DNA of 64,000 bases from Promethearchaeota archaeon (GCA_019057865.1 JAHLWP010000006.1:64001-128000), one strand, 5' to 3'. Counted from the first letter of the stretch, positions 17,490 through 60,616 are shown. Made by a program: numbers and translations. The notes: a model not told the origin generated them from the sequence alone.

Positions 17490-18210
17490 AATATTCAGTA
17501 ATTTTTCTATTCTCTACTTCTTCATTTAAGATTTTTTTTGTTGTAACCCATGATTTCCTAGCAAACTGAGGGGGTTTTTTATTTTTTTTTATCCAATCTC
17601 TGAGGAAAGTTGTCGTTTTTATATCAGAAGGATAACCAGAGCCAAAATCACCAAACTTTTCTTTCAATTCTTCTATTAAATTATCTCTTATATCTTTTGC
17701 AATTATTGAACTTGCCGAAACTATAGGATAGGTATCATCAGCTTTATGTTTAGAAATAATTTGTCTTGGCATATATTCCAATAACATTCTAATTGATTCT
17801 CCGAATCTTTCTTCATTGACATCCGCAGCATCGATATATATACTATCTGGTTTTAACTCATTTATAATCTCAGCAATTTTTAATTCTTCTAGTCTGTTAA
17901 TAGATATTTTCCTCTCTTCTCTCTGATCGATCTCCTTAGCATTAATTACTATAACTTTATAAGAATGACAATTATCTTTTATTGCTTTAGTTAATTCACT
18001 TCTTCTTTTAGTGGATAATTTTTTAGAATCCTTAACACCAATTTTAGATAAAAAATCTAATTTTGACCTATTAAAACAAACACCACATAAAACCATTGGA
18101 CCTAAGACGGGCCCTTTTCGCATATAATTCGAATTGGACTATATTCTACCAGCCTCGTCTATTCCACAAACTATATCTAATTCTTCATTATGATTCTTGG
18201 ATGAGTTCAA
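17482..18210 (-). CDS. rnhB: Ribonuclease HII, split gene: exon 1 18210-18146, exon 2 18115-17482 (232 aa if spliced)
   Basis: Exon 1 (TTG start, inferred) MNSSKNHNEELDIVCGIDEAG; exon 2 (R)GPVLGPMV..DSKKL..DA..HKAD..GSGYPSD..PIP-like KITEYF; a 30-nt insert with in-frame TAG separates DEAGR from GP. Confidence 0.92.
18116..18145 (-). other. Putative 30-nt BHB intron in rnhB mRNA
   Basis: AATATAGTCCAATTCGAATTATATGCGAAA; bulges AG^A and AA^A; 4-nt central helix UGGU/GCGA (one mismatch); inner helix AUAUAG/UUAUAU. Confidence 0.82.
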
Positions 18211-19192
18211 TGAATTCCTCTTCATCATCAATTTCTTCTAAATTTTTAATTCTAACAATAGGAATTTTATTTTTTAAAAAAGTATCTGGGATTTTAATGT
18301 TGTTATTTACTATGAAGAGCGCAATTTTATGAAATAAGTCGGTAAACATTTTTAAGCATTTAGGATTTAACTGTTTAATCTTGTTTTGATCTTCACTAAT
18401 TCCTGAAAAAAGAGGATAAAAACCTTCTATTTTAGACTTGTCAGTTTTGGAATATAATGATAATTTGAAGGGTATTGAGCCTCTTTTATACCAATAGGAG
18501 GAAATCCCAATATCTTTGAATATTGATTGAACATGAGATTCAAAATCACTTAATTCGCTCTCCTCCATAAAATCACTTTGATCTATTTCGTATTTGAATT
18601 TCCAGTCAAAAATATTGATTTTTTTAAAAATTTCACTATCTTCTAAAATGTTTTTAATGTTTTCAGCTACTTTTTCAGAAGGATGCATACTTTCATTTTC
18701 ATAAGCACATACGGTTCTTTTTGTAACTCCAAGTTTTTCTGATAATTCTTTTCTCGTTATTGATTGCTTTTCTCGTAAGGTTTTCATCACATTGCCATTT
18801 ACAAATACTATCCCTCCCCCTCTCTTAGCAAGTATATAAGGATATATATTTTCATCTAAGATCTTTTCTAAAGTATTAAAAGTTATAAATGGCAATCCAT
18901 TCCTAATATAAATAGTATCATCTTCTAATTTTTGATATCGATTCCTAATTCCAATTAATAACGGTTTTGATTTTAGTATTATGGATAAAGATTTAATATC
19001 ATTAATTATATCTGGGGTTATATTATCAATATTCGGAAAAATTTTTAAGCTAAAAATTAAATCATTCTTTTTAACTAATATATCAAAACAAAATTTGTTT
19101 TTTTTTGAGGAAAAATTGTCTAAAGCAAATGTTTCGAACTTTGCCTTCCTTAATAAAATATTAATTTTCTGAAGAATCTGATCAATCATCAA
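18188..19192 (-). CDS. Archaeal Cro/C1-type HTH transcriptional regulator
   Basis: FCFDIL..K; YIRNGLP; KRGG; HTH SITRKELSEKLGVTKRTVCAYE. Confidence 0.88.
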   Translation of the reverse strand: MMIDQILQKINILLRKAKFETFALDNFSSKKNKFCFDILVKKNDLIFSLKIFPNIDNITPDIINDIKSLSIILKSKPLLIGIRNRYQKLEDDTIYIRNGLPFITFNTLEKILDENIYPYILAKRGGGIVFVNGNVMKTLREKQSITRKELSEKLGVTKRTVCAYENESMHPSEKVAENIKNILEDSEIFKKINIFDWKFKYEIDQSDFMEESELSDFESHVQSIFKDIGISSYWYKRGSIPFKLSLYSKTDKSKIEGFYPLFSGISEDQNKIKQLNPKCLKMFTDLFHKIALFIVNNNIKIPDTFLKNKIPIVRIKNLEEIDDEEEFIELIQES

Positions 19193-19290
19193 TTCTATTT
19201 ACTCTAAAGACTATATACTATTAAAAAATAATTCATTTATATATTAAATATTAAATTATCAATAAATACTTTCTATTAAATATTATAATA

Positions 19291-19860
19291 TTATTTTTTA
19301 GGTATTTTAAGTAAATCTGAATCGGTAATAATTCCTATAAATTTATGATTAATATCTTTTACTAATACTGCAGGGTACTTAACAAGTAAATTCGAGATAT
19401 CTTTAATATTCCATTTTTTATCAATTTCCGGAAATAGTAACTCTTTTATAAGAGATACTTCCACATTGAGAAGCTCTGGATTATCAGTTAAATATTTTTG
19501 AATTTTTTTAGAGGTTAAACTTCCTAAATTTTGTTGATTTTCTAAGATTGGAAGTTGAGAGATTTCATGTTTATTCATTAGATCTACTGCTTCCCTTATA
19601 GTCGAGCTAGGTTTGATAGATATAATATTCCGGGTCATAATATCTTCAGCATGTTTCTTTGACTTTTCTCTTATCTTACGTTCATATTCTAGATATTCAT
19701 ATATTCTTTTGATTTTGGAATATGGAGGATCTATCGATCCATTTTCAATCCTAGATATTGTAGATTGTGGAATCTCTAATTTTCTTCCTAGATCTTTTTG
19801 AGTTATACCTAATTTTTTCCTTAAATCTTTAATTTTATCCAAAGAAGGGAGAGTTTCCAT
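19291..19860 (-). CDS. XRE-HTH + CBS-pair transcriptional regulator
   Basis: LGITQKDLG..QSTISRIENG; AEDIM; ISQLP; GIITDSD. Confidence 0.93.
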   Translation of the reverse strand: METLPSLDKIKDLRKKLGITQKDLGRKLEIPQSTISRIENGSIDPPYSKIKRIYEYLEYERKIREKSKKHAEDIMTRNIISIKPSSTIREAVDLMNKHEISQLPILENQQNLGSLTSKKIQKYLTDNPELLNVEVSLIKELLFPEIDKKWNIKDISNLLVKYPAVLVKDINHKFIGIITDSDLLKIPKK

Positions 19861-20049
19861 AGGTAAAAAAAATATTATTATGCTTCTTATGCATAATATA
19901 ATTACATAATATTTATAAAAATTATTAATTATAAATGTATATAAAATGAATTTAATCCATTTTTCGTTTAATAATGATTTTAACTGATAATTAATTTAAA
20001 AACATACTTAAACCAAATATTTATTTAAATAAGAAGACGGTTAAATGAA

Positions 20050-21297
20050 ATGTTAAAAATTGAACATTTAGACTCAAAGTTCGCTGTTGAACGCTCTGAA
20101 TTTCCAGAGCTCGTTGAAAGAAAAGGAGTCGGACATCCTGATAGTGTTTGTGATGCTGTAGCCGATGCATGCTCTAGATCGCTATGTGGTTATTATTTGG
20201 AGAATTTCAACCGTGTATATCATCATAATGTAGATAAAGCAGCACTGGTAGGCGGGGTCGCCAAACCAGAGTTTGGTGGCGGATTAATTATCCAACCACA
20301 ATATTTTTTGATTGTCGGAAGAGCTATTAATCAAATAATAACAGAATGTGCTCCGGGAGAATATAAATTAGAATATATCCCCATTGCAACGATTTGTCTT
20401 GAAACCTCGCGTCAAGTTATGGGAAGAATTTTCCGTAATCTTGATTTAAATAAAAATATACAATTTGATACAGCTATTCGACCAGGGTCTACTGATTTAA
20501 CTGGTTTATTTGATGAATCTCATCATACTGAGGAAGTTCCCTTAGCAAATGATACGAGTTTTGGCGTAGGGTATGCCCCTTATTCAGATGTAGAGCGAGT
20601 AACTCTTGAAGCTGAAAGATTAATTAATTCAGATAAATTTAAGGATAAATGTAAAGCTTCTGGTGAAGACGTAAAGGTTATGACTCAAAGGGTTGGAAAT
20701 AACATAGGTATAACCGTAGCAGCAGCTATGATTAGTAAATATACTAATGACATTGGTGAATATGTTAATTATACTAATCAGGTTAAGGATGCTGTTTTAG
20801 ATTTAGCAGCAGATATAATTCCAGAACGCGAAGTTACTTGTCAGGTAAACGTTGCTGATATTTTAGAGAAAAACCTAATTTACTTAACTATAACTGGCAC
20901 TAGTGCTGAATCAGGTGATGATGGGGAGGTAGGACGAGGAAATAGAAGTAATGGTTTAATAACCCCCTGTAGACCGATGAGTTTAGAAGCAGTATGCGGC
21001 AAGAATCCGATTAATCATGTTGGAAAGATTTATAATATCCTTAGTACTAATATGGCAAGAGAAATTCATAAAAGAGGGCAAGGAGATATCATTGAGGTTT
21101 ATGTAAAATTACTCTCTCAAATTGGAAGACCAATTACAGATCCATGGATTAATTCCATCAATTTAATCCCTGCAGAGAATATTAATTTTAGCAGCATTGA
21201 AAAAATTGCTAAAGAAGTTTCGGAAGAGATGCTGAGCAAAGAAAAATTAATGGTATTAAGAAAGCGTCTGATAGAAGGTAAGGAACAAGTATATTAA
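20050..21297 (+). CDS. mat: Archaeal S-adenosylmethionine synthetase
   Basis: [10 protein letters not shown]; HHNVDK; ANDTSFG; [12 protein letters not shown]. Confidence 0.97.
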
Positions 21298-21454
21298 AAT
21301 AGATTTTTCATTAGAGCTTTTTTATTTTTTTTCTATTTTTATTAGTTAATATATTATGAGTTCAGAATAAAGATAGATTCAAAATTAATAAAAAAAATAT
21401 ATTAATAGAATTAATTCGAATTCAAAAATAAGATAGAGTTAAGGTGATAAAAAT

Positions 21455-21745
21455 TTGGGTTTAGATAAATGGCTCAAACCAGAGGAAGAGGTAAAGAAGA
21501 AAAGGAGAGAAAAAAAAGATGAAGATAATTCGTTACAGAGGGTTTCTAAACCCAAAAAAGAAAAGAATGATACAAATGCACGGAAATCAGTTGAAAATAC
21601 AATAAAAAGGTTATCCAAATTTGAACTCGTTTGTTCAAATAGAAAATGTAAATACAAAAAAACAATTATGAAAAAACTACTCACGGAAAAGGATAAAACT
21701 TGTCCGAGATGTAGTGGCGTGATGAAAGTTCAAAAACTTAATTGA
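21455..21745 (+). CDS. Small Zn-ribbon protein with N-terminal LDKWL motif
   Basis: GGTGA Shine-Dalgarno plus TTG start; CSNRKC..CPRC. Confidence 0.8.
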   Translation: MGLDKWLKPEEEVKKKRREKKDEDNSLQRVSKPKKEKNDTNARKSVENTIKRLSKFELVCSNRKCKYKKTIMKKLLTEKDKTCPRCSGVMKVQKLN

Positions 21746-21759
21746 AAAAAAGTCTTCTT

Positions 21760-21987
21760 CTAACTTTCAGGGAGGTTTTTTAAATCAAAAACTGATTCGC
21801 AATTGGGACATGTGTTTGGTTTCTTGCTATATTTTAAAACAAAGTAAATTATAAAGCCCAAACCTAAGGTTAGGATGACGAGGAAGCATAAAACTTCATG
21901 ATAAATGTGTTGAAAATTCGGTCGCCGTAAAACAACCTCTCTCTCGCATGTTGGGCAATAAACAGTTTTTTTCCCCGTATTGATCAA
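21760..21987 (-). CDS. LITAF-like Zn-ribbon membrane protein
   Basis: CPTC, then ~20 hydrophobic residues, then CPNC. Confidence 0.7.
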   Translation of the reverse strand: MINTGKKTVYCPTCEREVVLRRPNFQHIYHEVLCFLVILTLGLGFIIYFVLKYSKKPNTCPNCESVFDLKNLPES

Positions 21988-22035
21988 CTACTGTAATTGA
22001 GTTTTTAATATTAAATTATATTTATCAAAATTTAA

Positions 22036-22827
22036 TTATTTTTTGTCGAGATTAAAATCGTATTCAATCTTTTTCATTTTTTTTGCTGGTCTTCCAATGT
22101 GTATAAATTTTGGCTCAAGATATTGATTAACTTGTGTATAACTTCCCATCCCTAAAATTGCTCCTTCTCCTACTATAGTTCCTGGAGAGATAACACTAAA
22201 TGCACCAATTGTGCAACCATCTTTTAGGATAACCTTTTTTAGGAGTAGAAAATCATCAAAAATCATCGAGCTCATAATAATAGAGCCTTCCCCTAAAATA
22301 GTATTCTCACCAATTTCTACGAAATCTGAATCAATATAACTATCTAATAAACCTGTATTATATGATACTTTTATATTGCAGATTTTAAGAGCAAATATTT
22401 TTATCCAAGGTAATGGAAAGTAGTTATAAGCCTTTAAAACAAATTTTTTTATTGTTTTTCTTAAAATAAAGAATAAATAGTCTTTATCCCTAAAGTTTCT
22501 TTTAAAAATTCCCTCTCTTGGACGGTGGATTAAATTTATAAGAATTAAAAGTAATTTGGAATAAAAAAGAAGAAATACTAAGAAAAGTCCAAAATAAAGA
22601 ATAATTAATATGGGTAAGAAGCACATTACTCCTATTGGAGTGAGCCAAATTGAAAATAAATTAAAAAAAAATTGAAATAATAAAATTGTAGGAAAAACTG
22701 AAAGCCATATCAAAATAATATAGATCCAAGAAAACCAATTCTCGTTTAAAGAATTGTTTGTTATAATAATACTCCTAATTTCTGTATTATAATCTGCATT
22801 ATCCCTTAAAAATTCATTAGGTTTCAT
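22036..22827 (-). CDS. Membrane protein with left-handed beta-helix (hexapeptide acyltransferase-like) domain
   Basis: Two TM helices; PREG motif; IGENTILGEGS/IGAFSVISPG repeats; GRPAK. Confidence 0.8.
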   Translation of the reverse strand: MKPNEFLRDNADYNTEIRSIIITNNSLNENWFSWIYIILIWLSVFPTILLFQFFFNLFSIWLTPIGVMCFLPILIILYFGLFLVFLLFYSKLLLILINLIHRPREGIFKRNFRDKDYLFFILRKTIKKFVLKAYNYFPLPWIKIFALKICNIKVSYNTGLLDSYIDSDFVEIGENTILGEGSIIMSSMIFDDFLLLKKVILKDGCTIGAFSVISPGTIVGEGAILGMGSYTQVNQYLEPKFIHIGRPAKKMKKIEYDFNLDKK

Positions 22828-22828
22828 T

Positions 22829-24403
22829 TTAATTTAATTTTAATTTATCTATATTGAAATTCATTATTTTAATTAGTTCATTTTTAGAAAGTTTATTTAG
22901 CGGCGCTCCATAATATAGAGAATTTGAACTTAATTTAGCATTTTTAGCCGTAACTGATAATGGGAGCAAGAATACATTGTTTTCAATTTGAGACCCTGGA
23001 GCGATACAGCAGCAATCTGAAATGACCACATTATCTTTTATATTTATACCTTTTATGGTTAAATATTTATCCCAAAGATGGTTTTCAATTAAACATCTTC
23101 CAAGATATGTATTATTACCTACATCTAATAATTCTTTTGCTATATATGAGTCCTCTATTACTGTATTTCTTCCAAAGTTACAATTACCAATGAAATTAAA
23201 GCCTGATCTTAATAACCAAGGAAAAGGACTTCTTTGTAATTTCCATTTAACATATCGTAGTAAAAATGAACGAATAAAATAATTACTATACTCTTTATTT
23301 TTTCTATTCCAGTGATAAACACCTTCTTTGATTGGAGTTTTACGCTGAATTAAATTATATATGATTTTTGATAATAATATTAAAATTGATAAGTTAATTA
23401 TATAGAAAACAATAAATATTAAAGGGGTGATTAGAAGAATAAGTAATGAGGGAAAGGAGCTAAAGATATGAATAAAATTAGGTGTTTGCAGAATATATGG
23501 AATAAAAAATTGAAGGTTATAATATATAATTCCGAAAATGGGAATACAATAAGAAATAAAATAAATAAAGGCAATGATCAGTAAGTTGTAATAAAAATTC
23601 TTTACAAATTTTCCTCCTTGAGTGTCTATATTTTTAAGATTATGAGTAAATGTATTATTTTGATTGTTGTTTTTATTAAAAACTGTGTTTCTTAAATTTT
23701 GATATAAGTTTTTTGATTTATTATCTAATTTTTCAATAGTATTGTCTATATAGAAAGAATTTGGTCCTATTTTTTGATTATACTTTGTTATAGACATCGC
23801 TTCTATAGTTGTATTCTTATCTACTTGAGTTCCTGGAGTAATAAATGAATTTGAACCAACTATTACATTATCTTTAATTTTTACTTTCTTAATAATTAAA
23901 TAATTTCCTAAAATTACACTGGCTTTAATGGAACTTCCTTTACCAATAAAAATATTTTTCCCTAGTTCGATGAATTCCGAGTCATTATCGAACCACTTGT
24001 AATTAAGCTTTTCCACAAATGGTAAAGGGATGAATTGTGATACCCATACAGGCCATTTTTTTACCACGGCCCTTAAACTCCAAAAATAATAATCTTTATT
24101 CCTTTTATTTCTTTCAAAGATACCTTCCTTAGGTTTATGAATGAGATTTATTATAACTAGAAAGATTTTTGCTAATATAATGGAGCTCAAAACTAAAATT
24201 ATATAACCTAAATAAATCTGAATTGGAAACAGTAAAAGTAATAGAAAATAGTTCTTCTCAACTAATTTCCAAAAAAAATAAAACTCTAATATTGTAGGTA
24301 TTACTGAGCCCCAAATAATTAAAATATAGATAATTAAAAATTTCTTAGAAGCTAAAGTATTCGTGGTGAATGGTCCATGGTGAATTGAGACAGGAATGGA
24401 CAA
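22829..24403 (-). CDS. Membrane protein with two [2TM + hexapeptide] modules
   Basis: PKEG/IKEG motifs; hexapeptide repeats; paralogous to the neighbouring gene. Confidence 0.8.
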   Translation of the reverse strand: MSIPVSIHHGPFTTNTLASKKFLIIYILIIWGSVIPTILEFYFFWKLVEKNYFLLLLLFPIQIYLGYIILVLSSIILAKIFLVIINLIHKPKEGIFERNKRNKDYYFWSLRAVVKKWPVWVSQFIPLPFVEKLNYKWFDNDSEFIELGKNIFIGKGSSIKASVILGNYLIIKKVKIKDNVIVGSNSFITPGTQVDKNTTIEAMSITKYNQKIGPNSFYIDNTIEKLDNKSKNLYQNLRNTVFNKNNNQNNTFTHNLKNIDTQGGKFVKNFYYNLLIIAFIYFISYCIPIFGIIYYNLQFFIPYILQTPNFIHIFSSFPSLLILLITPLIFIVFYIINLSILILLSKIIYNLIQRKTPIKEGVYHWNRKNKEYSNYFIRSFLLRYVKWKLQRSPFPWLLRSGFNFIGNCNFGRNTVIEDSYIAKELLDVGNNTYLGRCLIENHLWDKYLTIKGINIKDNVVISDCCCIAPGSQIENNVFLLPLSVTAKNAKLSSNSLYYGAPLNKLSKNELIKIMNFNIDKLKLN

Positions 24404-24505
24404 TGTTTTGTTATATTGCGATATTAAATTGTAAAATTAGTATATTCTTTAACAATTAAAGTTTATTCATAGATCAATTAAATTTAATCATAAAATACAA
24501 AGAAA

Positions 24506-24661
24506 TTATTTAAATTCTCGAAATTCAGGTTTTTCTTTCGGTTCTTTCTTTTTCTTTTCCCCAGATATTAAAATATTCCATGTACTATTTACACCTAATT
24601 CTTTTAATTTTTTACGTTCTTCTTCTAAATCCTCATCTTGTTCTATTTCTTCTTCACTCAT
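24506..24661 (-). CDS. Small charged hypothetical protein (51 aa), absent from ORF track
   Basis: MSEEEIEQDEDLEEERKKLKELGVNSTWNILISGEKKKKEPKEKPEFREFK; coding-like purine bias. Confidence 0.65.
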   Translation of the reverse strand: MSEEEIEQDEDLEEERKKLKELGVNSTWNILISGEKKKKEPKEKPEFREFK

Positions 24662-24858
24662 TATTAGCACTCAAATAAATTATAAATTATTCATCTTATT
24701 AATTTATTTTATAAAGTTTAATATTTATTCGTTTTGAAAAATAAAGCTAAAAATAAAATTATTGAGGGAAGATTCTAAATAAAATTTTATATCATTACTT
24801 TTTTTATTTTATAAATTATTAAATATTTGAAAAGTATCTATTTTAAGAGGTCTAACTA

Positions 24859-25851: not shown

Positions 25852-26026
25852 GAATTTAATTTTTTTAAGTTTTTAAACAAAATAAATCAATAAAAATGGT
25901 TCAAATATATTTTGAAAGCAAAAAATTATGAATGATAAAAATTTTAAATTAGTATACTTTGTAAAATTTATTCAACTCAATCAAAATTTTCGATTAAAAC
26001 CTTTTGAATAATTATAGGGAAGAAAA

Positions 26027-26974: not shown

Positions 26975-27072
26975 AATTATAACTCAGTCGATAATTATAA
27001 TCCATAAAAATTATCAAGGAATCTACTTTTTTTTCAATAATCTTTTTTAAAAAAATATTTCAAATTCTTAAA

Positions 27073-27793: not shown

Positions 27794-28222
27794 ATGGCAA
27801 TTAGACAATATAATACAGAATTAGGATCATTAATAGATAAGATTGTAAAAGTATATCTTGATAAAGACAAATTCTTTGTCGGTCAATTAAAAGGAATTTC
27901 TGATGATTCAAACCTTATCCTTATCAATGCTAAAAATGAAAAAAATAAACCCTTTCCAAAGATATTTATAAGAAATTCATTTTATAATTTTGTAAGTTTA
28001 GAAGAAGAACCTTTCCCTATGAAAGCATTGGCAGACAGAATTGCTACAATTTTTTCAAAAGGGCATGTGAATTATATTGAAGATCAGAACATAATTTCAA
28101 TTCTAAATGGAAAGATTATCGTTGATGAAAATGAAGTAAGAGGTACTGGTCCATCAGCAGAGCGAGTTAAAAAAATTTTCCAGCAATTTAAAATGGATCT
28201 TGAAAGTCCTAATGAGGAATAA
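27794..28222 (+). CDS. Sm/Lsm protein with C-terminal extension (SmAP3-like)
   Basis: Sm1 motif (L..LIDK.V.V..F.G.L.G....NLIL.NA); Sm2 motif IFIR; extra C-terminal domain. Confidence 0.82.
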   Translation: MAIRQYNTELGSLIDKIVKVYLDKDKFFVGQLKGISDDSNLILINAKNEKNKPFPKIFIRNSFYNFVSLEEEPFPMKALADRIATIFSKGHVNYIEDQNIISILNGKIIVDENEVRGTGPSAERVKKIFQQFKMDLESPNEE

Positions 28223-28257
28223 CTTTCTTTTATTTTTTTAATCTATAATAATTTATA

Positions 28258-28749
28258 TTACTCAAAAATTCTTAAGAGATTCTTTAATTGTAGATTTTGG
28301 ACAATATTCTTCAGTAAAGCTTTTCCTAACGGTGTTACCTTAATGATGCCTAAATTCTCAAATTCTCTTATATAATCATTATCAATTAAAAATTTTATAT
28401 CTGAATTCCAGACTTTGCCAAAAATTTCTTTTAAATCATATATTTTAATATTTTCATCAACTTCTTTGCTAAGAGCAAGAATTAACGCTAAGGTACCATA
28501 TTGAGATGGTGTTATATTATCATCTTTCCCATAAGATGTTAATATATAATAATTTTGATCCAAAAATTTGGATGTGATTAACTCAAATCCTACATTTTTT
28601 AAATTCAAATAAACTTTACTAATAATATTTTTGAATTCAAAACTCTTACATAAATTCCTTAAATCTTCCTCTCTAATCATTTTTTGTGGATTGGTTAAAA
28701 TAATTCTTGAAATATTTTGTACTACTTCTTCAATATTGGTTGCTTCCAT
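28258..28749 (-). CDS. Tandem winged-helix (KITE/ScpB/NSE-like) protein
   Basis: 163 aa; NLKNVGFELI...YYIL; QYGTLALIL; LIDNDYI..IKVTPLG wing motif. Confidence 0.55.
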   Translation of the reverse strand: MEATNIEEVVQNISRIILTNPQKMIREEDLRNLCKSFEFKNIISKVYLNLKNVGFELITSKFLDQNYYILTSYGKDDNITPSQYGTLALILALSKEVDENIKIYDLKEIFGKVWNSDIKFLIDNDYIREFENLGIIKVTPLGKALLKNIVQNLQLKNLLRIFE

Positions 28750-28760
28750 AATTTAATTTA

Positions 28761-30395
28761 TCAACTCTCTTCAATATTTATAACTCTTAAATTTTCAATT
28801 TTTTTTTTCATTTCCAAATTCGAAATAATAAAAACCAAATTAGTTGTTGTTAGATTTTCTTCACTTTCAAATACAGGTAATATTTTTCTAATTGTTCTAT
28901 AAATTGAAAGCTTGTTATATTGACTTAGTAAAAATACATTTGAGAAGACAATTGTTTCAATTTTTAGAATGATTTTAATTGAGATATATAAAATTATAAC
29001 AAAAAAAATTTTTTCAGGAGTGGTTAATTCCTCAAACTTTATATGTTCTTCATTATTACGCATAAAATTTAATTGAACAAAAAAAAAATTATTTTCATTA
29101 TTGATCGTTATTTGTAATTGAGATTCTATATTGATTTTAGCTAAAAATTTATTGAGTAGTTCTTCAAGTTCATTAAGTAGGGTTTCAAATTTTCTAAATC
29201 TTTCAAAGATCTCTAACATTTCATTTTGATCATATTTAATAATGAGTTCTTCTCTTTTTAATTTTAAAAGCTCTTCAAATTCTAGTAATTTTTTAGTAAT
29301 TAGAGAAAAATTCTCTGGATTCTCTGGATCTATTTGATTATTTAAATTTAAGATTTCACTTAATTCAGCGTTTAGATTTTCAATTTCTTCTTCGATTTCA
29401 TTAGTTAATCTTATAGATTGAACATTTTTGATGTTAAGATCTTCATCAGAAATATCTTCATATTCTTTTATTTTTTCTTTATATTCATCTTTTAGGTTAT
29501 TTATTTTATAGTGATCATTTTCAATTATATCTAAAAGATTTTGATAGTCTTTTTCAAATATTTCATATCGGGGATATAATTCTTCAAATTTTAAACTAGT
29601 TTCATGTAATTTTGTTTTAATTTCATTAATCTCGTATTGAATCTTTTTAGCTTTTTTCTGAAGGGCTTGGATTTTTTCTGCATTTGTTAAATTTTCATCG
29701 AATTCTATTGTTAATTTTAAATCATCTTTCTTTTCCTTTTTTACTCCTTCCATTTGTCTTGTTATACTATTAATCTGATTAAAACATTCTTTCTTTTGTT
29801 TATTTAAATTCTGGATTTTTAAATTATAATCATCTAATGTTTTCTTAACTTGATCAATCCGATTTTTATGTTGTAGAAAGTCTTCTTCCAAATATTTCAA
29901 TTTATTTTTGTTATTTATTAGTGATTCATTTAGTTTTTCTATTAAATTTGAAATAGCAGTTAATTTACTTGATCGTTTACTAGCTTCTGATAATTTTAAT
30001 TCTTTTAATAGTATCTTCTTTTTTTTAAGAAGTAGATTAAATTCAAAAGTATGAATTATAGACTGAATCAGTTTATTATATTGAGAAAAAATTTCAATAT
30101 TATTATTAATTGTTCTATGAAATTCTCCCAAGTAGTCTAATAGCTTTGGAGCTTTACTTAATTCAGAAAAATTTTTCGCTTGATTTTGAAAAATTTCAAT
30201 AAATTCATCAATTGGAATTAAATCATAATTTTTGGAAATTTTCAAATAACGTTCATCTTGAAACTGAGCTAATAAATTTTTTTTGAATTTTCCAAGGATT
30301 AAAGTAAATCTATCAGTAATCACAATTTCTTTTTCGCCAATGGAAATTTTCAAATTATTTAATTGAATTATAGATTCAGCTCTATTTTTTTTCAA
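28761..30395 (-). CDS. SMC/Rad50-like coiled-coil protein with degenerate ABC-ATPase motifs
   Basis: N-terminal beta region FTLILGKFKK; ~300-aa coiled coil; C-terminal FEELTTPEKIFF at the LSGGE position; IVFSN at the Walker B position; FIIS. Confidence 0.6.
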   Translation of the reverse strand: MKKNRAESIIQLNNLKISIGEKEIVITDRFTLILGKFKKNLLAQFQDERYLKISKNYDLIPIDEFIEIFQNQAKNFSELSKAPKLLDYLGEFHRTINNNIEIFSQYNKLIQSIIHTFEFNLLLKKKKILLKELKLSEASKRSSKLTAISNLIEKLNESLINNKNKLKYLEEDFLQHKNRIDQVKKTLDDYNLKIQNLNKQKKECFNQINSITRQMEGVKKEKKDDLKLTIEFDENLTNAEKIQALQKKAKKIQYEINEIKTKLHETSLKFEELYPRYEIFEKDYQNLLDIIENDHYKINNLKDEYKEKIKEYEDISDEDLNIKNVQSIRLTNEIEEEIENLNAELSEILNLNNQIDPENPENFSLITKKLLEFEELLKLKREELIIKYDQNEMLEIFERFRKFETLLNELEELLNKFLAKINIESQLQITINNENNFFFVQLNFMRNNEEHIKFEELTTPEKIFFVIILYISIKIILKIETIVFSNVFLLSQYNKLSIYRTIRKILPVFESEENLTTTNLVFIISNLEMKKKIENLRVINIEES

Positions 30396-31422
30396 AATGG
30401 TCTTTAAATTTTTTGTATTCTTTTTCTTTTCTTTTTTTTCTTTCTCTTATTAAATCGAGTGGATCTTGTTCATCATCTTTTGGAATCATATAGTCATCTT
30501 TGAATCTCTTTTCAAACTTAGATTTAAATTTATTAATTTTTTCAGATATTTCATCACTAATTTCTAAAGGCTTTTTTTCTTCAACTTCTAGAACAATATC
30601 AGATAATTTCTCCCTTTTTTTTTTACGTCTTCTTCTTTCGAATTCCGTGTCAGAATATTTAAAGTATTCTTCATACGTCTCTTTTTGCTCTTCTTGCTTC
30701 TTTTTTAATTTTTTTAATTCTTCTTTATCTCTAGCCTTTTTAATAATTTCTTCCTTTGCTATTAATTCTTGTTTGGTTAATTGAGTTTCGGTTTCTTTTA
30801 AGAATTCCTTGAAATTTAAATTAGGATTTTCCATAAAAAATCTTTCGAACTCTTTTACTAATAATGTGGCAGTATTATTAGGAATTTTACTTAATTCTAT
30901 TTTAAGTTTCTTTTGAATTAAATCACTATAAAATGAATTAACATTATTTATTACATCTAAAAACAAAGAATTTTGTTTCAAAGAATCTACTAATTCTAAC
31001 CATTGGTTTAATTCAACTGAAGGGATGAAAGAAGGTTCATCAATGACTCTACTAATCGTTTTATTTTCTATAAGAAATAAGCCAATTTTCTTAGTATTAT
31101 CTTCATTTATTTTTAATTTCCTTAAGTTTTCTTTGAAGAGATCTTTATACTTTTTAATTAAGTTATCTTGGAAGTCTAAAAATTTTATAATGTTATTATT
31201 TGAAATCTTAATTAATTTAGCATTTAAGTTATTTAATAAATTAGTAGTATCTTCTATTTGCTCAAGAAATTCTTTATTAGAAAATTGTTTAATTAGAAAT
31301 TGTTTATTTTGTATAACTCTTTTTGAAATTTCATTTAACTGATTAATCTCACTTTGAAGTTCTTCTATTGGAGAAGTTAATTCCTTAATTTTTCCAAGGT
31401 TGAATATTTGGTTTTTTATCAT
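30382..31422 (-). CDS. Coiled-coil hypothetical protein with basic C-terminus
   Basis: 346-aa ORF overlapping the next gene; RRRRKKKR tract. Confidence 0.75.
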   Translation of the reverse strand: MIKNQIFNLGKIKELTSPIEELQSEINQLNEISKRVIQNKQFLIKQFSNKEFLEQIEDTTNLLNNLNAKLIKISNNNIIKFLDFQDNLIKKYKDLFKENLRKLKINEDNTKKIGLFLIENKTISRVIDEPSFIPSVELNQWLELVDSLKQNSLFLDVINNVNSFYSDLIQKKLKIELSKIPNNTATLLVKEFERFFMENPNLNFKEFLKETETQLTKQELIAKEEIIKKARDKEELKKLKKKQEEQKETYEEYFKYSDTEFERRRRKKKREKLSDIVLEVEEKKPLEISDEISEKINKFKSKFEKRFKDDYMIPKDDEQDPLDLIRERKKRKEKEYKKFKDHFEKK

Positions 31423-31448
31423 TTTTAAAGAAAAATATTATTAGAATT

Positions 31449-32558
31449 TTAAATTTCTGGTGGACTTGGTAAATCTCTTCTTTTTTCCTTATATTTTTCT
31501 GATCTATTATAATACCTTTTTGTATTACTTAATAGATCCTGCCTTTCAACATGATTTGCAGTGCCTCCGACTAATTTTAAAGAATCATAAAAAAGATCAT
31601 AAGTTAAAAGCTCTGTATTTATTGCCTTTAATATTGCAACTCTAGTACCTCTTTCAATATCAGATCCAGAATATCCATATGTTAATTCTAAAAGTCCATC
31701 TTTCTTTCCTTTTTTATTTATTGCATCCCATAATATATTATTATCAAATTCAGAAATTTTATGACCTAATTTGACTTCCAAATCTTTAGTTATTGCTTGA
31801 ATTTTGTTGAACTCATTGTTTAAATTTGTGAAAATATTATTATCAATGCCTATTTTTGCTTGTTTTAATTTATTAAGAAATGATTCAATAATTTGTTTCC
31901 TTAAATAATAATCGGGGAAATCAAATTTAAAATGAAATGTAAAACGCCGCCAAATTGCTGAATCTAATTGATGCTGATGATTAGTTGCTCCAAATATAGC
32001 TAATGGAACTCCCTCATAATTTATTTTATCAATAACTTGTAAGAAAGAAATAACAGCACGTTTTATTTCTCCTACTTCATGAATATTAGATCTTTCAGAA
32101 CCAATTGCATCAATTTCATCAAAAAATAATATGAAAGCACCTCTTTCTTTTGAAATATCAGCTGCTAGCTCAACAACCCTTCGGATATTTTTTATAGTAT
32201 CTCCTAATAAGGGTGATACTAATCTGTCAGATTCAACTACACAAATAGGTATATTGTATTTCTTAGCAAATCCTCTTGTTAATGATGTTTTCCCCGTACC
32301 TGGTGGACCATATAAAAGAACTGTTAAATTAGGATTTAATTTTGTATTTTTTAGCTGTTCTGTAAATTCATTATATTTTTTAAGGGCTTTAAAAAAATCC
32401 TCTAAAATTTCTTTTTTAACTTCATTTCCCTTAATATCATCAATAAATTCCTTTATATCTGAAGGAAAATAGACAGCACCATATTTACCAATCCGCTCTT
32501 TAATAATATCTTCAGTATAAGTTTCTTTTTTTTCTGATTCATCTTTTTTCTTACTAAT
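31449..32558 (-). CDS. AAA+ ATPase (369 aa), probable ATT start; ORF track shows only the last 110 aa
   Basis: Manual translation is open from 32558 to 31449: LLYGPPGTGKT, FILFFDEIDAIG, ATNH..LDSAIWRRF, YSGSDIE; in-frame TGA two codons upstream of ATT. Confidence 0.88.
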   Translation of the reverse strand: MSKKKDESEKKETYTEDIIKERIGKYGAVYFPSDIKEFIDDIKGNEVKKEILEDFFKALKKYNEFTEQLKNTKLNPNLTVLLYGPPGTGKTSLTRGFAKKYNIPICVVESDRLVSPLLGDTIKNIRRVVELAADISKERGAFILFFDEIDAIGSERSNIHEVGEIKRAVISFLQVIDKINYEGVPLAIFGATNHQHQLDSAIWRRFTFHFKFDFPDYYLRKQIIESFLNKLKQAKIGIDNNIFTNLNNEFNKIQAITKDLEVKLGHKISEFDNNILWDAINKKGKKDGLLELTYGYSGSDIERGTRVAILKAINTELLTYDLFYDSLKLVGGTANHVERQDLLSNTKRYYNRSEKYKEKRRDLPSPPEI

Positions 32559-32584
32559 TTTTCATCATCTCCAATATTTGTATA

Positions 32585-33892
32585 TTATTTATTTTTTCTT
32601 TTATTATCAAATTTTTCACAATAATTTGCAATTTCATTAATAAAATCTTTAAGATTATCAATTTGAGATCCAATAAAATTAAAGATTTCTTTTCTATACT
32701 GAGGAGAATCTCTGATTTTCATCTTATCCAAACTTAAATAATTAGGGAAGCATATAAGTTTCATTAAATAAGGAAGAACTTTCTCATTAGTTTGTAAATC
32801 TTTAAAAATGGCATAAAATATGTTTTCATCAGACAATTTCCACTTTAAAAGACCCATATACATCAAAAATGCAAAATTCATTGAAATCCAATTTATTAAT
32901 TCTTTTGATAAAAATCCTCGTCTTTGTGAAGCAAAAGCTAAATAATACAAAATCAAAGTTTCATTGCTAAATTGGGGATTTAATCTTATTGATCCATCAG
33001 ATTGCTTATTTTCACGTAAGAATTTATTATCTAATAAGATTTGCACAAAATTTTCTTGAGGCGCTAAGAATATTCCATCGATCTCACGTAAACCTATACG
33101 TTCAGCAATTTTTTCTAGAGCTTCTTCTTCTGGATTTGCAATTGAATCGATATATGGCAAAAATACAGTAGTCTTTAAAATCATTGGAAGTTCATAATTT
33201 TTTCTTTCAGGAAATTCTCCAAAATTTGGATCCAAATTATATAATGATGTAATATTATTCATTATTTGATAAATTTTTGGAGACATTCCTGGAATCTCAA
33301 AAAAATCAGTATTTTCTAATTTTTCTCGATAATATGTATGAGGTTGAAGTAAATGTCGTTGGCATTCATAAAATGTTGGAGCATATTCCAATAACGCCTC
33401 ATAAATGATTTTTATATTAGTACCTCTTGGAAATAGTCTTTCTTCTATAAATTTCACTAAAAGATAAAGATACGTATTCTCTATATTAATTTCGTCTGGA
33501 TTTGTAATATATCGTAATATATTTAAGGCATCAACCGATTCCTGAAGAAATTCAACAATATAATCTTTAATATCTATAATGGGAATATTTTCTCTATATT
33601 TAATAATAAAATCCTTTATTATTTCATATATATTTGATCTATACATTGCAGAGAATTCAGAGAGTGCTCTAACTTTGCGAATATTTCTTTTTTCTTCTTC
33701 TTGTCGAATCTTATCTAAAATTTCTGTATCTAGTAAAAGATCTGCGTCTAAATCAATAATTATCCTTCTTGTCTCCCTAAGAATTGGACGCATATGACTT
33801 ATAAATGTTAAATATCGTGGTAAAATATCAGTCCATTTCTCCCTTTTTCGTCCAGGCTTGGTTATTCTTGTAGAACTCCTTTTATAACTCAT
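32585..33892 (-). CDS. Hypothetical protein
   Basis: 435-aa ORF within the co-oriented cluster. Confidence 0.8.
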   Translation of the reverse strand: MSYKRSSTRITKPGRKREKWTDILPRYLTFISHMRPILRETRRIIIDLDADLLLDTEILDKIRQEEEKRNIRKVRALSEFSAMYRSNIYEIIKDFIIKYRENIPIIDIKDYIVEFLQESVDALNILRYITNPDEINIENTYLYLLVKFIEERLFPRGTNIKIIYEALLEYAPTFYECQRHLLQPHTYYREKLENTDFFEIPGMSPKIYQIMNNITSLYNLDPNFGEFPERKNYELPMILKTTVFLPYIDSIANPEEEALEKIAERIGLREIDGIFLAPQENFVQILLDNKFLRENKQSDGSIRLNPQFSNETLILYYLAFASQRRGFLSKELINWISMNFAFLMYMGLLKWKLSDENIFYAIFKDLQTNEKVLPYLMKLICFPNYLSLDKMKIRDSPQYRKEIFNFIGSQIDNLKDFINEIANYCEKFDNKRKNK

Positions 33893-33913
33893 TTTTTAAC
33901 ACATTGATTTTTC

Positions 33914-35053
33914 TTATTCTTCTTCATATCCAACTAATATTTCAGTAAAAATGTTAGAGATCTCAATAAAAATGGGAATCTCCACCCTACATAAGTTACC
34001 AAGTATCCATTTATTAACATCCTTTAATAAGAAACGAATTTGGTTATGGATTTTTTTGTTAATTTCAGAATCAATTATATGAGAAAGCCATAATCCCCCA
34101 CCTATTCTATATGCAATTATTTTGATTAGAGGTTCGAATAAATATTCTAATACTTGTTTCATCATCCAAGATTTCGGTATAACACTCATGCTTTTATTAT
34201 CAAAATTTGGATCATTTAAAATGGGATTTGTTTCATCTATTGATAGTTTTGGCAGGAAGCTTAATAATAAAATTAAGGCTAGTATAGCAGAAATTCCATT
34301 TATTGTATAAGATCCTCCAATTTTTTCAATATCATCTCGGTTTATAGCTACATTTGCTAAAAACATGCAAATAAAAACATTTCTATCAAATAGTTCAGAC
34401 ACATAAGCATATCCTAAGTCTTGGTCAACGATTAAATATTTTTCTTCTAGAATTTTAATTATATCATCCGGAAATGTATAAAAAGTATAAACTTTTTCTT
34501 CACTTCTTCTTATATCCTTTTCAATGACAAGTTCTTTTGAAATGAGCCCAAACATATCAATGAGCTCTTCAAGTTGATTTTTTATATAGTGTTTAGGTTT
34601 ATTTGGATCACCAAACATCGCAAAAAATTGATGATCTACAATATGAAAATCGTTTCTTTTGCTAAACGCCTCAACAATCCTATCAATTATGGGTCCTTGG
34701 GTCCCAGAAGCAATTGCTTTTGCTTTTGAAGTTACAAACCCGTTCAATAATTCATTTATAATAAAATCTTGCTCATGAGTTCTAGATTTCAAAACTTTTT
34801 CAAATGCTTCTGAAAAATTTTTGGTATTAGGAAAGAATGCATTTTGTATTTTATCATTAATAGACTTTGAAAAGATTTCACCATTATTCTTAGGAAAATG
34901 GAGTTGCATATTATTTAGTCTTTGAATTAGCGCCTCTTTTGCTCCCGGAATATTTTCAATATCTCTTTTTTCCAATTCTTCAATAGCTTTTTCAACTCCT
35001 TTTTCAAATTCCTGCAATAATTCTTTCCATATAGCATTCTGAATTTCAGTCAT
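33914..35053 (-). CDS. Hypothetical protein
   Basis: 379-aa ORF within the cluster; GAGG Shine-Dalgarno. Confidence 0.8.
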   Translation of the reverse strand: MTEIQNAIWKELLQEFEKGVEKAIEELEKRDIENIPGAKEALIQRLNNMQLHFPKNNGEIFSKSINDKIQNAFFPNTKNFSEAFEKVLKSRTHEQDFIINELLNGFVTSKAKAIASGTQGPIIDRIVEAFSKRNDFHIVDHQFFAMFGDPNKPKHYIKNQLEELIDMFGLISKELVIEKDIRRSEEKVYTFYTFPDDIIKILEEKYLIVDQDLGYAYVSELFDRNVFICMFLANVAINRDDIEKIGGSYTINGISAILALILLLSFLPKLSIDETNPILNDPNFDNKSMSVIPKSWMMKQVLEYLFEPLIKIIAYRIGGGLWLSHIIDSEINKKIHNQIRFLLKDVNKWILGNLCRVEIPIFIEISNIFTEILVGYEEE

Positions 35054-35069
35054 TTATTCTTTAATACCT

Positions 35070-36047
35070 CTACCTTCTTTCATTTGTTATATTCCAATTT
35101 AGTTCTACTGATATTTTCTTTAAAGCCTCTATTAATGGAGAAACTGACTTTTTATCATAAAAATTTGGTGATGAAACTCCCTTTTGTGCTTTCCAACCCA
35201 TTTGAGTTCCCTCGCCCATTTCTCTTTGTCCATATTTCAAAATATTGCTAAGATCTCGTATCCACCAATAAAACCTTAACCATTTTTTATTTGGATTATC
35301 TTTAGAATAGATAACTGCTAATGCTTTCCATTCACCCATCAGCCATTTTACAGTTATACCGCTCACGGGCATATAAAAATTTATTGGAAAATCTGCTTGA
35401 AAGCGTAGATCGAGATCTGAAGGTGTTATGTTGAATATTGGTTGATTATATCCTTCTAGAATAACAATTTCTCCACAATGTTGACATTCATAATGAGATT
35501 TCCTTTTTTCCATTTTTTTTTGACATCTTGGACATGTTTTATTTTCAATTATCCTATATTTAATAATTTCCAATTGTTTCTCCTTTTCTAATTCTTCTTC
35601 TGTTTTAGGTCGTCGTTTTCCATATTTTCCTGTCCAATTCCATAACTCATCAAATGATTCATCAAATTTTTCTAAAGAATTAATAAGATTGTTAAGAACA
35701 TCCTTATCATAAATTTTAAACATTCCAGCATGTTGATAGGTTTTCCACCAAGATAATCTAATATATTTCTCATTTTTCAAATAAGCACTATGACAAATCA
35801 ATACTGCAAATGCCTGATTTTCTGTTTTATTTAAAAGAATACCTTTCTCACATATCTCATATCTTCGATCTAAACTCAAATTTTTATGAAAATAATCTCC
35901 GTTCTGAATTTCACCCTTTTCAATTTTCATTTCCTCCACTAATTCAGCTATAACGTCTTTTTCTTTAATAATCTTTCTACATTGAGGGCATTGATAAATG
36001 CCTGCAACTAATAATTCCATTTCAATATTACATGAAGGACATTTCAA
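35070..36047 (-). CDS. Internally duplicated [Zn-ribbon + beta domain] protein
   Basis: CPSC..CPQC..KYIRLSWW..IYDK is repeated as CPRC..CQHC..KWLRFYWW..FYDK. Confidence 0.75.
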   Translation of the reverse strand: MKCPSCNIEMELLVAGIYQCPQCRKIIKEKDVIAELVEEMKIEKGEIQNGDYFHKNLSLDRRYEICEKGILLNKTENQAFAVLICHSAYLKNEKYIRLSWWKTYQHAGMFKIYDKDVLNNLINSLEKFDESFDELWNWTGKYGKRRPKTEEELEKEKQLEIIKYRIIENKTCPRCQKKMEKRKSHYECQHCGEIVILEGYNQPIFNITPSDLDLRFQADFPINFYMPVSGITVKWLMGEWKALAVIYSKDNPNKKWLRFYWWIRDLSNILKYGQREMGEGTQMGWKAQKGVSSPNFYDKKSVSPLIEALKKISVELNWNITNERR

Positions 36048-36049
36048 AT

Positions 36050-37150
36050 TTAATCATTCCCACTCAGAATTATAAATCTTTCATAATCTAAATTTAATAA
36101 TTTTAATTCTTTCTTTGTTAGTTTTGAAATTTCATTATTTATTTTTATCAAATTCGTTCTAAGCTTTATCAGGGATTCTTGAATTTTCTTTAGAATATCA
36201 TCCTCATTAAAAGAAACTTTTTTAATGAATTCAAGGTAACCGAGTTTTTTATCTTTTCCAGAATAATACTTTTTAATATCTGCTAGTTTATTATCTACTT
36301 CTTCTAATTGGTATCGGAAATTTATTAAAGATACTAACTTTGAATTCCATTCTTTAAATATAGAATTTTCTTTATCAATCTTATCAAAATCGAATTTTTC
36401 ATTAAGATCCACATTTTCTTCTCTAAGAAATTCTAGAACGTCCTTATTTTCTTCTAGTGCTTTATTAATTTTTTTTACAACAGGTTTAGTATTTAAAATT
36501 GGTTCAAATATTTTAATCAATTCATTTAGTTTTTCTTGAATTTCTTTAAATCGCTGATAGAAACCTTCAATTGTTATTTCGATTTTAATGGCTTGATATA
36601 TATTTCCATATTGATCTAAAATATGATAAAGATCGTCCGATAGTGTGTAATCATGTTCTCCAATTTCAAAAATAAATGCGTGTATTGCACTAGTTTTCTC
36701 ACATCTTACCCCTTTTAATCTAGTAATAGCTAAATTAAAATTTCTTCTTTGGAGAAATTTTAATTTCTTATTAATCATTAAATAGAGAGTATCATCTGGT
36801 ACAGATATTGTATCTTTTTCTATTGTTATTGTCTCATCTCCTAATTTTATGATAAAGTCATCATCTTTAAGTTCAAACTCTCTTGTATTTCGTATATTTT
36901 TAAATAAACCCAAATCAACAGCAACTTCAATAAATTCCTCATTCCAAAAATTTATGATATTTCTTTTATATATTTCATCTAATATTATAATTCTCTCATA
37001 AGATTCAATTATGTTTGGTTCATTTAAATCTTTAAATAAATCATATCTAATAGCATAAAGGAATAGAATAATATATCTCATATCCTTATCTTCTAAAATT
37101 TTATCAATTAAATCCTTATCATAATCTAATGTTAATGTCTTATGCTCCAT
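36050..37150 (-). CDS. Hypothetical protein, C-terminal coiled coil
   Basis: 366-aa ORF, first gene of the cluster. Confidence 0.8.
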   Translation of the reverse strand: MEHKTLTLDYDKDLIDKILEDKDMRYIILFLYAIRYDLFKDLNEPNIIESYERIIILDEIYKRNIINFWNEEFIEVAVDLGLFKNIRNTREFELKDDDFIIKLGDETITIEKDTISVPDDTLYLMINKKLKFLQRRNFNLAITRLKGVRCEKTSAIHAFIFEIGEHDYTLSDDLYHILDQYGNIYQAIKIEITIEGFYQRFKEIQEKLNELIKIFEPILNTKPVVKKINKALEENKDVLEFLREENVDLNEKFDFDKIDKENSIFKEWNSKLVSLINFRYQLEEVDNKLADIKKYYSGKDKKLGYLEFIKKVSFNEDDILKKIQESLIKLRTNLIKINNEISKLTKKELKLLNLDYERFIILSGND

Positions 37151-37360
37151 ACCTAAAGTCCACTAATTATTATTAATACTATAAATTCATTATCGTGAAA
37201 AAGAGTAAGATTGATAATTAAACATTCCTAAAAAATTTTACTAAATTCCTCTTAATTACTAATCCATAAAAGCAAAATTTTTTAGTTTTTATTTCTATTT
37301 GTTTAATAAGAATTTTAAAATTCATGAATTTAGTTTAAACAATTTTTAGAGTTTTTCAAC

Positions 37361-37970
37361 ATGGGAAGAAGAAAAAGGAAACAGCCAACATATAAAAGAG
37401 TTAAAAAAGTACCCAAAATTTTCACCTGCCCGGAATGACGAGATCGACTACTGATTTCTCCCTGAATGTGGTGAAAAAAGTGTAAAAGTTACTGATATAA
37501 AAAAGAAGGGTGCTTTTGCTACAGTAAAATGTGGGAATTGTGGATTAACCCAGGAAGTATTAGTGAATGCAATTTCAGAACCAGTAGATGCTTTTGGAGA
37601 TTTTATAGATATTCATTATGCAGATCAAGAACTCTTGAGATTAGAAAAAAGAGTTGCAAAATTGAAAGAAGAAGGTGAATGGGGTGAACTTGCATTTGCT
37701 TACTCTATATTGTCGGATCTTTGCAGAACGAAAGCAGCACTGTTATTAGAGGAAGATAATATCGATATGGACAAAGTTAATGACTGGAAAATGAAAGCTG
37801 AACAATATAAAAAGCTTAAAAAGGATGCTTTATTGAAACTTGATACAGAAGAATTAGAACGAGGTGTTAGAACAGATGAAGAGTCCTTATTTGCTGAAAG
37901 TGAAACAAAAATAAAGAAGGAGCGAAAAATAGAAGATATCTTTGATGATCCAGGATTTTTAGAATTTTAA
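37361..37970 (+). CDS. elf1: Transcription elongation factor Elf1 with C-terminal extension, split gene: exon 1 37361-37435, exon 2 37467-37970 (192 aa if spliced)
   Basis: Exon 1 MGRRKRK...PKIFTCPE; exon 2 CGEKSVKV...ATVKCGNCGL...SEPVDAFGDFID; separated by a 31-nt insert beginning TGA; TTTAAA ~25 nt upstream of the ATG. Confidence 0.92.
37436..37466 (+). other. Putative 31-nt BHB intron in elf1 mRNA
   Basis: TGACGAGATCGACTACTGATTTCTCCCTGAA; outer helix CUGC/GUGG; central CCGG/CCUG (one mismatch); bulges AA^U and AA^U; inner helix GA(C)GAGAUCG/UGAUUUCUC. Confidence 0.87.
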
Positions 37971-60612: not shown

Positions 60613-60616
60613 AGAA

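Follow-up and report, generated by a model that had tools for sequence, protein, structure and literature searches.

Putative bulge-helix-bulge introns in the rnhB and elf1 genes of a Promethearchaeota archaeon

The bulge-helix-bulge (BHB) introns recorded for archaeal mRNAs in the searchable literature are confined to cbf5, where the intron lies in the coding sequence, and HVO_1309, where it lies in the 5′ untranslated region (UTR); a 2020 paper named cbf5 as the sole other archaeal mRNA example at that time (PMC7714728). The cbf5 pre-mRNA of Crenarchaeota (Watanabe 2002; Yoshinari 2006; Yokobori 2009, PMC2738675) carries a short coding-sequence intron with a BHB at its boundaries, gained and lost among related species, which is a substrate of the tRNA-splicing endonuclease EndA and has been linked to lineages in which that enzyme is hetero-oligomeric (PMC2738675). 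Here we analyze a stretch of 64,000 nucleotides (nt) of Promethearchaeota archaeon (GCA_019057865.1, JAHLWP010000006.1:64001-128000; hereafter the window, with positions counted from its first letter), in which two unrelated essential genes, rnhB (RNase HII) and elf1 (the transcription elongation factor Elf1), are each interrupted near the 5′ end by an insert of 30-31 nt. We consider it highly likely that both inserts are BHB introns in protein-coding transcripts, removed by EndA and the RNA ligase RtcB, a reading that sequence comparison strongly supports. They would very probably extend the cbf5 type of intron to new genes and a new phylum, with several genes affected in a single genome. We found no description of BHB introns in Asgard mRNAs in the full-text literature, in which subscription journals are thinly covered.

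The resemblance to cbf5 extends to the short length, the coding-sequence position, the BHB at the boundaries and the gain or loss among relatives. The cases differ in that cbf5 is one gene of Crenarchaeota whose splicing was established by RT-PCR and in vitro cleavage, whereas here several unrelated genes of an Asgard (Promethearchaeota) lineage are concerned and their splicing is inferred. HVO_1309 of Haloferax volcanii likewise provides an mRNA that serves as an EndA substrate, confirmed both in vivo and in vitro (PMC7714728); its intron leaves the reading frame untouched, whereas no full protein could be made from rnhB or elf1 unless theirs were excised. A recent preprint reports heavy interruption of Asgard tRNA genes by BHB introns, with repeated gains. 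The motif, the size range and the presumed enzymes are the same as here, but the preprint is restricted to tRNA genes and nowhere mentions mRNA, whereas the hosts here are mRNAs. Further afield, the HAC1/XBP1 mRNA also undergoes protein-only excision of a short intron at stem-loops with a change of frame, followed in metazoa by ligation through RtcB. Its nuclease, however, is Ire1 rather than EndA/TSEN, the cuts fall in 7-nt loops rather than 3-nt bulges, and the reaction is stress-regulated, of which there is no hint here. The untranslated gap of phage T4 gene 60 resembles the elf1 insert in being short, in having a stop after the take-off codon and in containing a hairpin. It relies on matching take-off and landing codons that are absent from rnhB and from one elf1 allele, and the pairings conserved here are those of a BHB.

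Junctions and folds of the rnhB and elf1 inserts

On the minus strand of the window, a short open reading frame (ORF) ends in ...CGIDEAGRI and a stop, and the RNase HII ORF begins just downstream of it. The Pfam RNase_HII profile matches the downstream ORF over positions 9-199 (E = 6e-44), and the first 8 profile positions (GIDEAGR) are encoded by the upstream one. Removal of 30 nt (AATATAGTCCAATTCGAATTATATGCGAAA, 18145..18116) fuses the two ORFs into ...GIDEAGR-GPVLGPMV... (hyphens here and below marking junctions or cuts) and restores the DEAGR-GP motif exactly, while the uncut transcript reads AGA AUA UAG and stops after two codons. Against the N-terminus of an intron-less homologue (P0004), exon 1 aligns without gaps and with 24/28 identical residues; among relatives it varies at third codon positions while GIDEAGR is invariant (alignments A1/A3), a pattern that reads as the signature of translated sequence. 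The D and E of GIDEAGR are two of the four active-site carboxylates (DEDD) of RNase HII. The predicted start (ATG ATG AAG...) lies within the last ~40 nt of an upstream gene encoding a 334-amino acid (aa) helix-turn-helix (HTH) protein, in another frame (18188-18231). The overlap is real, since intron-less homologues retain the peptide that it encodes, MMKRNSL. At its other end rnhB stands tail-to-tail with a Nop5-fibrillarin pair (15559-17489, plus strand).

In elf1, removal of 31 nt (37436-37466) yields ...FTCPE-CGEKSV... and exactly restores CPE-C. The unspliced reading, GAA UGA, meets an immediate stop, and the insert also shifts the frame. The insert parts the two cysteines of the first zinc knuckle (CxxC). 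Folding without constraints gave an outer helix (UUUUCACC.UGC with GUGGUGAAAA), a central helix (CCGG/CCUG, with one C.U mismatch), the bulges AA-U and AA-U, and an inner hairpin. The fold has a z-score of -3.45, and none of 200 shuffled sequences folded equally well.

In the canonical archaeal BHB, derived here from the geometry of tRNA introns at 37/38, each strand of the central helix is followed on its 3′ side by a bulge, which is cut after its second base. The rnhB and elf1 junctions were set by protein homology alone, independently of any fold, and at these junctions both inserts satisfy the rule of two 3-nt bulges around a 4-bp helix. For elf1 this architecture is the minimum free energy (MFE) structure in 5/5 carriers, with both flanking helices of the strict hBHBh′ form. 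For rnhB it was identified by a register check, which gives the central helix UGGU/GCGA with 3/4 pairs (one G.G mismatch), the bulges AG-A and AA-A, and an AU-rich inner hairpin (h′) of 9 bp, the outer helix being irregular; in most relatives the same check gives 4/4 central pairs. A loose BHB descriptor passes 0.52% of all (site, length) pairs in this genome. With that acceptance and with junctions fixed by homology, the probability of two chance registers is ~3e-4, after allowing for 2 and 6 equivalent registers. These results bear out the original prediction that each insert lies inside an essential motif, introduces a stop, folds as a 3/4/3 bulge-helix-bulge and regenerates the motif when cut after the second bulge base.

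Other classes of intervening sequence were also considered. Group I and group II introns require a ribozyme core of hundreds of nt, compared with inserts of 30-31 nt, and the only Rfam matches in the window that pass the gathering thresholds are four tRNAs. An intein was rejected on the in-frame stops held by the inserts and the length of the elf1 insert (31-32 nt).

Conservation, absence and covariation among relatives

We compared the two loci across ~40 related genomes; the nearest records are Promethearchaeota MAGs, which places the organism among the Asgard archaea. Each of the 23 same-genus genomes with a match has the rnhB insert at the identical site, as do 12 further loci of a species-representative collection, and the insert is 30 nt long throughout, except for 29 nt in G024. 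An independent sediment metagenome contig from 2015 spans it without a gap. In 11 relatives DEAGRGP is uninterrupted, namely eight genomes of other families (L025-L030, L052, L053) and three nearer lineages (L078, L079, L085), of which L078 retains 84% aa identity. In an alignment of 29 rnhB sequences, 91% of cells are paired, compared with 24-44% in slid controls, which shift the 3′ partners by 1-3 columns; 9/20 pairs are altered on both sides, and 0/500 shuffles attain any of five measures. The shuffle control overstates the significance because the sequences are related, and the slid control and the view of individual sequences are the stronger evidence. In L084, L088 and L089, for example, the hairpins are unrelated in sequence, yet 8-9 of 9 pairs form. 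Codon choice in the exon is tracked by the intron half of the central helix: UGGU is found with ACCA, GUUA or GUCA, and other alleles have CGGG:CCCG, UGGG:CCUA or UGGC:GCUA.

The exon half of the motif shows a corresponding restriction. In same-genus copies of rnhB, the last four codons of exon 1 are 86% identical at third positions, compared with 58% in neighbouring codons, and identity within the insert is 81%, whereas 53-75% of synonymous sites differ. Alleles bearing the insert retain GAC GAG GCT GGT, whereas intron-less ones have the AT-ending codons typical of this genome. The elf1 codons that pair with GGUGAA of exon 2 are TTC ACC in 5/5 carriers and in 0/16 non-carriers. Judged from these codons, the exon bases predicted to pair in the BHB are constrained only in intron-bearing alleles of the two genes.

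Carriers of the elf1 insert are fewer: it occurs in this genome (G000), G010, G003, G001 and one of two copies in G004. Its length is 31-32 nt and never a multiple of 3, and the hairpins differ in sequence while 5/5 fold as h-B-H-B-h′. It is absent from 16 same-genus genomes, including the closest relative, G012, whose protein is 95% identical; the intron-less G012 ORF and the predicted spliced product form a gap-free alignment of 192 residues, and exon 1 is identical at 25/25 residues. For both genes, the predicted spliced proteins are collinear with intron-less orthologues, with no gap. Presence or absence in orthologues, proposed earlier as a check, thus turned out as precise absence in relatives whose frames run on uninterrupted. 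Between G000 and G012 (synonymous divergence, dS, 0.07), five synonymous differences in elf1 fall within the 16 exon bases beside the insertion site and the first base after it (37420-37435, 37466), compared with one in the rest of exon 1. This cluster suggests either that a short tract was replaced (by conversion) or that constraint changed abruptly. Outside elf1 no alignment extends between the two loci, the G012 copy being in a different context. In the G004 bin the two elf1 copies lie at C94:40890-41390 and C171:3803-4303, one with and one without the insert; they may represent two strains rather than paralogues, because the bin is ~9% contaminated.

We then compared coding constraint. Exon 2 of rnhB has a ratio of nonsynonymous to synonymous divergence (dN/dS) of ~0.1-0.15 relative to 21 more distant same-genus orthologues that bear the insert, with 209-210 intact codons in all, and exon 2 of elf1 has a ratio of ~0.04-0.08 relative to 18 more distant same-genus orthologues. 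Synonymous divergence in most of these distant pairs is near saturation (dS 0.9 to above 2). Relative to G012, the ratios are higher (rnhB, 0.41; elf1, 0.34). No other stops or frameshifts were found in 23 rnhB and 20 elf1 orthologues, and a tblastn search with the joined proteins found no second copy of either gene in the whole 4.26-Mb assembly (99.7% complete, 29% GC). On these comparisons, both genes are functional and under purifying selection.

Public annotation has taken the interrupted frame of rnhB at face value, as anticipated for genes of this kind by the original prediction. The entries for this and most same-genus orthologues are proteins of 212-213 aa that start at an ATG inside the insert (17482-18123, minus strand) and lack the catalytic D and E, while RNase HII of intron-less lineages is annotated at 224-238 aa. 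We also searched protein databases for a full-length, near-identical RNase HII, which would have to derive from RNA; all entries at 91-98% identity had the truncated 213-aa form, and the entries of full length (≤86% identity) correspond to lineages whose DNA lacks the intron, such as L078.

An rnhB insert of another size was observed at L094:585-600 (JAOZFT010000004.1, labelled Thermoproteota archaeon INS_M20_B145), a MAG from another phylum, in a homologue with 46% aa identity. It consists of 16 nt (AGGATAAACCGCCTAA) at the exact DEAGR-GP site, and its removal restores frame and motif. In register it has a 4/4 central helix (AGGU:GCCU) and the same bulges, AGA/AAA, as the insert in the window, and unconstrained folding does not reproduce the motif. 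If this too is an intron, either it is very old or BHB-predisposed sites have received insertions repeatedly.

A splicing pathway and its competitors

The genome encodes candidates for each activity that splicing would need. It has two EndA paralogues (PF01974, 104.6 and 70.5 bits), alpha on contig C71 and beta on contig C69; as we read the translations, the catalytic His and Lys are present in one whereas the His is missing from the other, consistent with a two-subunit enzyme. Asgard EndA has been reported to be of the broad-specificity (alpha-beta)2 type with an L1 loop (PMC5829648). Before splicing, the 4-bp central helix would arise through pairing between the end of exon 1 and the 3′ end of the intron, the flanking exon bases would pair with each other to form the outer helix, and the middle of the intron would form a hairpin, which would place the two 3-nt bulges on opposite strands. 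The two-subunit EndA would cut after the second base of each bulge. RtcB, with its cofactor archease, would then join the exons, the intron probably being circularised, and the products would be mRNAs for an intact RNase HII of 238 aa (...GIDEAGR-GPVLGP...) and an Elf1 of 192 aa (...FTCPE-CGEK...). Cleavage and ligation of the two RNAs in the cell are inferred from geometry, conservation, covariation, reading frames, selection and the encoded enzymes. Together these support the proposal in the original prediction that this lineage would splice several mRNAs through EndA and RtcB.

Several observations weigh against this reading. In this genome each gene has one mismatch in its central helix. 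The original prediction had drawn attention to the mismatch falling at the same helix position (third of four) in both; this is so here, but the shared position is probably a coincidence, because it is not conserved in relatives. The outer helix of rnhB is irregular, the strict register giving 1 of the first 4 pairs, and a mismatch and a bulge are needed to form it; the motif is a relaxed BHB that would require either a bulged outer helix or an enzyme tolerant of relaxed motifs. Most rnhB inserts contain an in-frame ATG 9 nt before exon 2, and a truncated protein is possible in principle. In four genomes, elf1 has a GAA-UGA that could serve as a take-off site, then a hairpin, then a second GAA directly before the UGY at which reading would resume, within a 5-nt repeat, GAAUG. 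A genome-wide scan combining the BHB descriptor with ORF merging gave, at loose thresholds, no clear excess over frame-shifted decoys (28,709 versus 29,044). Finally, neither spliced transcripts nor circular introns nor peptides across a junction were observed: none of the runs listed as containing 28500-38499 is on record as RNA, and three metatranscriptome runs from related studies had no contig on 17800-37750.

The ATG within the rnhB insert would matter most if the exons were never joined, exon 2 alone being translated from an internal start (a 213-aa RNase HII and an Elf1 fragment of at least 135 aa) and exon 1 remaining untranslated or yielding a separate peptide. This is what the public annotation assumes. 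The ATG is, however, missing in 5/23 same-genus sequences and in 4/7 of those added in alignment A3, and where present it is accounted for by AUAU-G, whose bases belong to the inner and central helices. At the protein level rnhB exon 1 is conserved, and it supplies two of the four active-site carboxylates; Elf1 made from exon 2 alone would lose one of its four zinc ligands; and the intron-less orthologues are single continuous ORFs. We consider unjoined exons very improbable.

The GAAUG repeat of elf1 is what programmed translational bypassing would call for, in which the ribosome would take off at the codon preceding the stop, pass across the hairpin and resume at a matching codon while the RNA stays uncut. 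In the G004 allele, however, the landing codon is GAU, not GAA, and the BHB is still intact. The rnhB insert has neither matching take-off and landing codons (AGA versus AAA) nor a stop beside the take-off, and such repeats are lacking in cooS, acs and the other inserts described below. Bypassing would also leave unexplained the covariation of the central helix with exon codons and the outer helix formed between exons. We know of no bypassing system in archaea, and we give this explanation even less credence than unjoined exons.

Least probable of all is that the genes are dead or decaying after insertion of a small mobile or repeat element, or that the inserts are assembly artefacts: each insert does bring a stop or frameshift, and the 5-nt direct repeat flanking the elf1 insert could pass for a target-site duplication, but that repeat is broken in G004, no second lesion has appeared in 23 rnhB and 5 elf1 carriers despite near-saturated dS among them and dN/dS stays at 0.04-0.15 relative to distant orthologues, the 99.7% complete genome has no second copy, and the insert recurs in dozens of independent assemblies as well as in the metagenome contig.

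Other interrupted genes, tRNA introns and the neighbourhood

The features of the two genes, the ligation enzymes, the tRNA genes with introns and the further candidate genes are collected in Table 1.

Table 1 Coordinates of the features discussed; introns are predicted, and positions refer to the window unless a contig of the genome (G000) is given.
Feature	Position	Strand	Remarks
rnhB exon 1	18146..18228	-	MMKRNSLNSSKNHNEELDIVCGIDEAG plus first 2 bases of Arg codon; ends ...GGT AG; assigned by translation
rnhB putative intron	18116..18145	-	30 nt; in-frame TAG; bulges AGA/AAA, central helix UGGU/GCGA, 9-bp inner hairpin
rnhB exon 2	17482..18115	-	last base of Arg codon (A GGG CCC), then GPVLGPMV... 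to stop
elf1 exon 1	37361..37435	+	25 codons (MGRRK...FTCPE); Pfam Zn_ribbon_Elf1 profile 1-26
elf1 putative intron	37436..37466	+	31 nt; opens with U of UGA stop; canonical hBHBh′, AAU/AAU bulges
elf1 exon 2	37467..37970	+	starts at second Cys of CPEC; zinc ribbon and C-terminal extension; Pfam profile 28-76, E = 1.3e-9
RtcB RNA ligase	46736..48220	+	PF01139, 561 bits, full profile; only copy found in genome; presumed exon ligase
Archease, RtcB cofactor	48236..48673	-	PF01951, E = 6e-44, 151 bits; convergent with rtcB
tRNA-Thr(UGU) with intron(s)	734..836	+	Rfam tRNA 44.9 bits over 102 nt; ARAGORN 19-nt intron
tRNA-Lys(CUU), 28-nt intron	855..958	+	Rfam, ARAGORN
tRNA-Thr(CGU), 27-nt intron	60616..60716	-	Rfam, ARAGORN
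cooS	C41:42254/42287		Prismane profile 346-457, then 458-512
acs	C82:580/547		AMP-binding profile 89-211, then 215-299
NAD-epimerase	C75:2668/2703		profile 61-124, then 135-240
Ras-like GTPase	C48:46555/46589		matches on both flanks, weaker but consistent
leuS	C49:5688		paralogue aligned across junction, 60% identity
Alcohol dehydrogenase	C60:11314-11344		consistent, less decisive
Alpha/beta hydrolase	C75:14726-14759		consistent, less decisive
4Fe-4S (ferredoxin-domain) protein	C23:141067-141098		consistent, less decisive

The original prediction had seen a hint of more cases elsewhere in the genome and had proposed a scan with a BHB descriptor. We chose further candidates from the ranked output of the BHB scan and tested both flanks of each against Pfam. 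The additional inserts are 29-34 nt long and in BHB register, and those in cooS, acs, the epimerase, the GTPase and leuS were verified as further cases. As a census the scan was less informative. Beyond the loose-threshold comparison given above, a strict folding energy (-12 kcal/mol or lower) left 9 hits against 3.3 decoys, a small excess, and the requirement for a paralogue aligned across the junction left 5 loci against ~2 in decoys. Filters on dicodon coding potential, the absence of a start codon and a loop motif brought no improvement to the scan; the motif in question, AUUC/AUUUC, recurs in several intron hairpins but showed no enrichment over decoys at the level testable. A clean intron count is not obtained because the motif is too degenerate at 29% GC and the gene-boundary background is too high; the ranked lists are nonetheless useful for finding individual true cases. 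In a 400-kb pilot, the closed genome G032 proved too distant, with only 52 good orthologues and not one split alignment. We lean slightly towards the view that EndA-dependent mRNA micro-introns are genome-wide and evolutionarily active in this Asgard genus, with tens per genome, several in some genes, and closest relatives differing in their presence.

If these transcripts are spliced, an Asgard lineage would need its tRNA-splicing enzymes to make RNase HII (DNA repair and replication), Elf1 (transcription elongation), CO dehydrogenase, acetyl-CoA synthetase and leucyl-tRNA synthetase, and the annotation of such genomes would have to change. The inserts would then provide a natural system for the arrival and departure of BHB introns, in which the closest relatives differ precisely and a tract of synonymous changes lies beside the site. 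An intron-containing coding sequence would likewise be compatible with gene expression in archaea, where coupling of transcription and translation is generally assumed. Because the lineage is the one closest to eukaryotes, such splicing would also be relevant to where protein-only splicing of mRNA (TSEN and RtcB, XBP1/HAC1) has its ancestry; the origin of spliceosomal introns is not directly concerned. Should the genome-wide population be real, protein-only mRNA splicing would be a routine and obligatory step of expression in a close prokaryotic relative of eukaryotes.

The tRNA genes of the window offer a comparison of size that holds as first proposed (19-30 nt for four tRNA introns): introns of 19, 27 and 28 nt are listed in Table 1, and a further one of 30 nt is given by ARAGORN only. 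Across the 99.7% complete genome, ARAGORN in intron mode found 30 tRNA genes, 18/30 with introns, and probably missed many others owing to several introns in each. Pfam searches of the genes neighbouring the rnhB and elf1 inserts (Nop5, fibrillarin, SAM synthetase, HTH/CBS proteins and unknowns) found no homing endonuclease. The rtcB/archease pair lies ~9 kb downstream of elf1, and the window is rich in RNA-processing genes.

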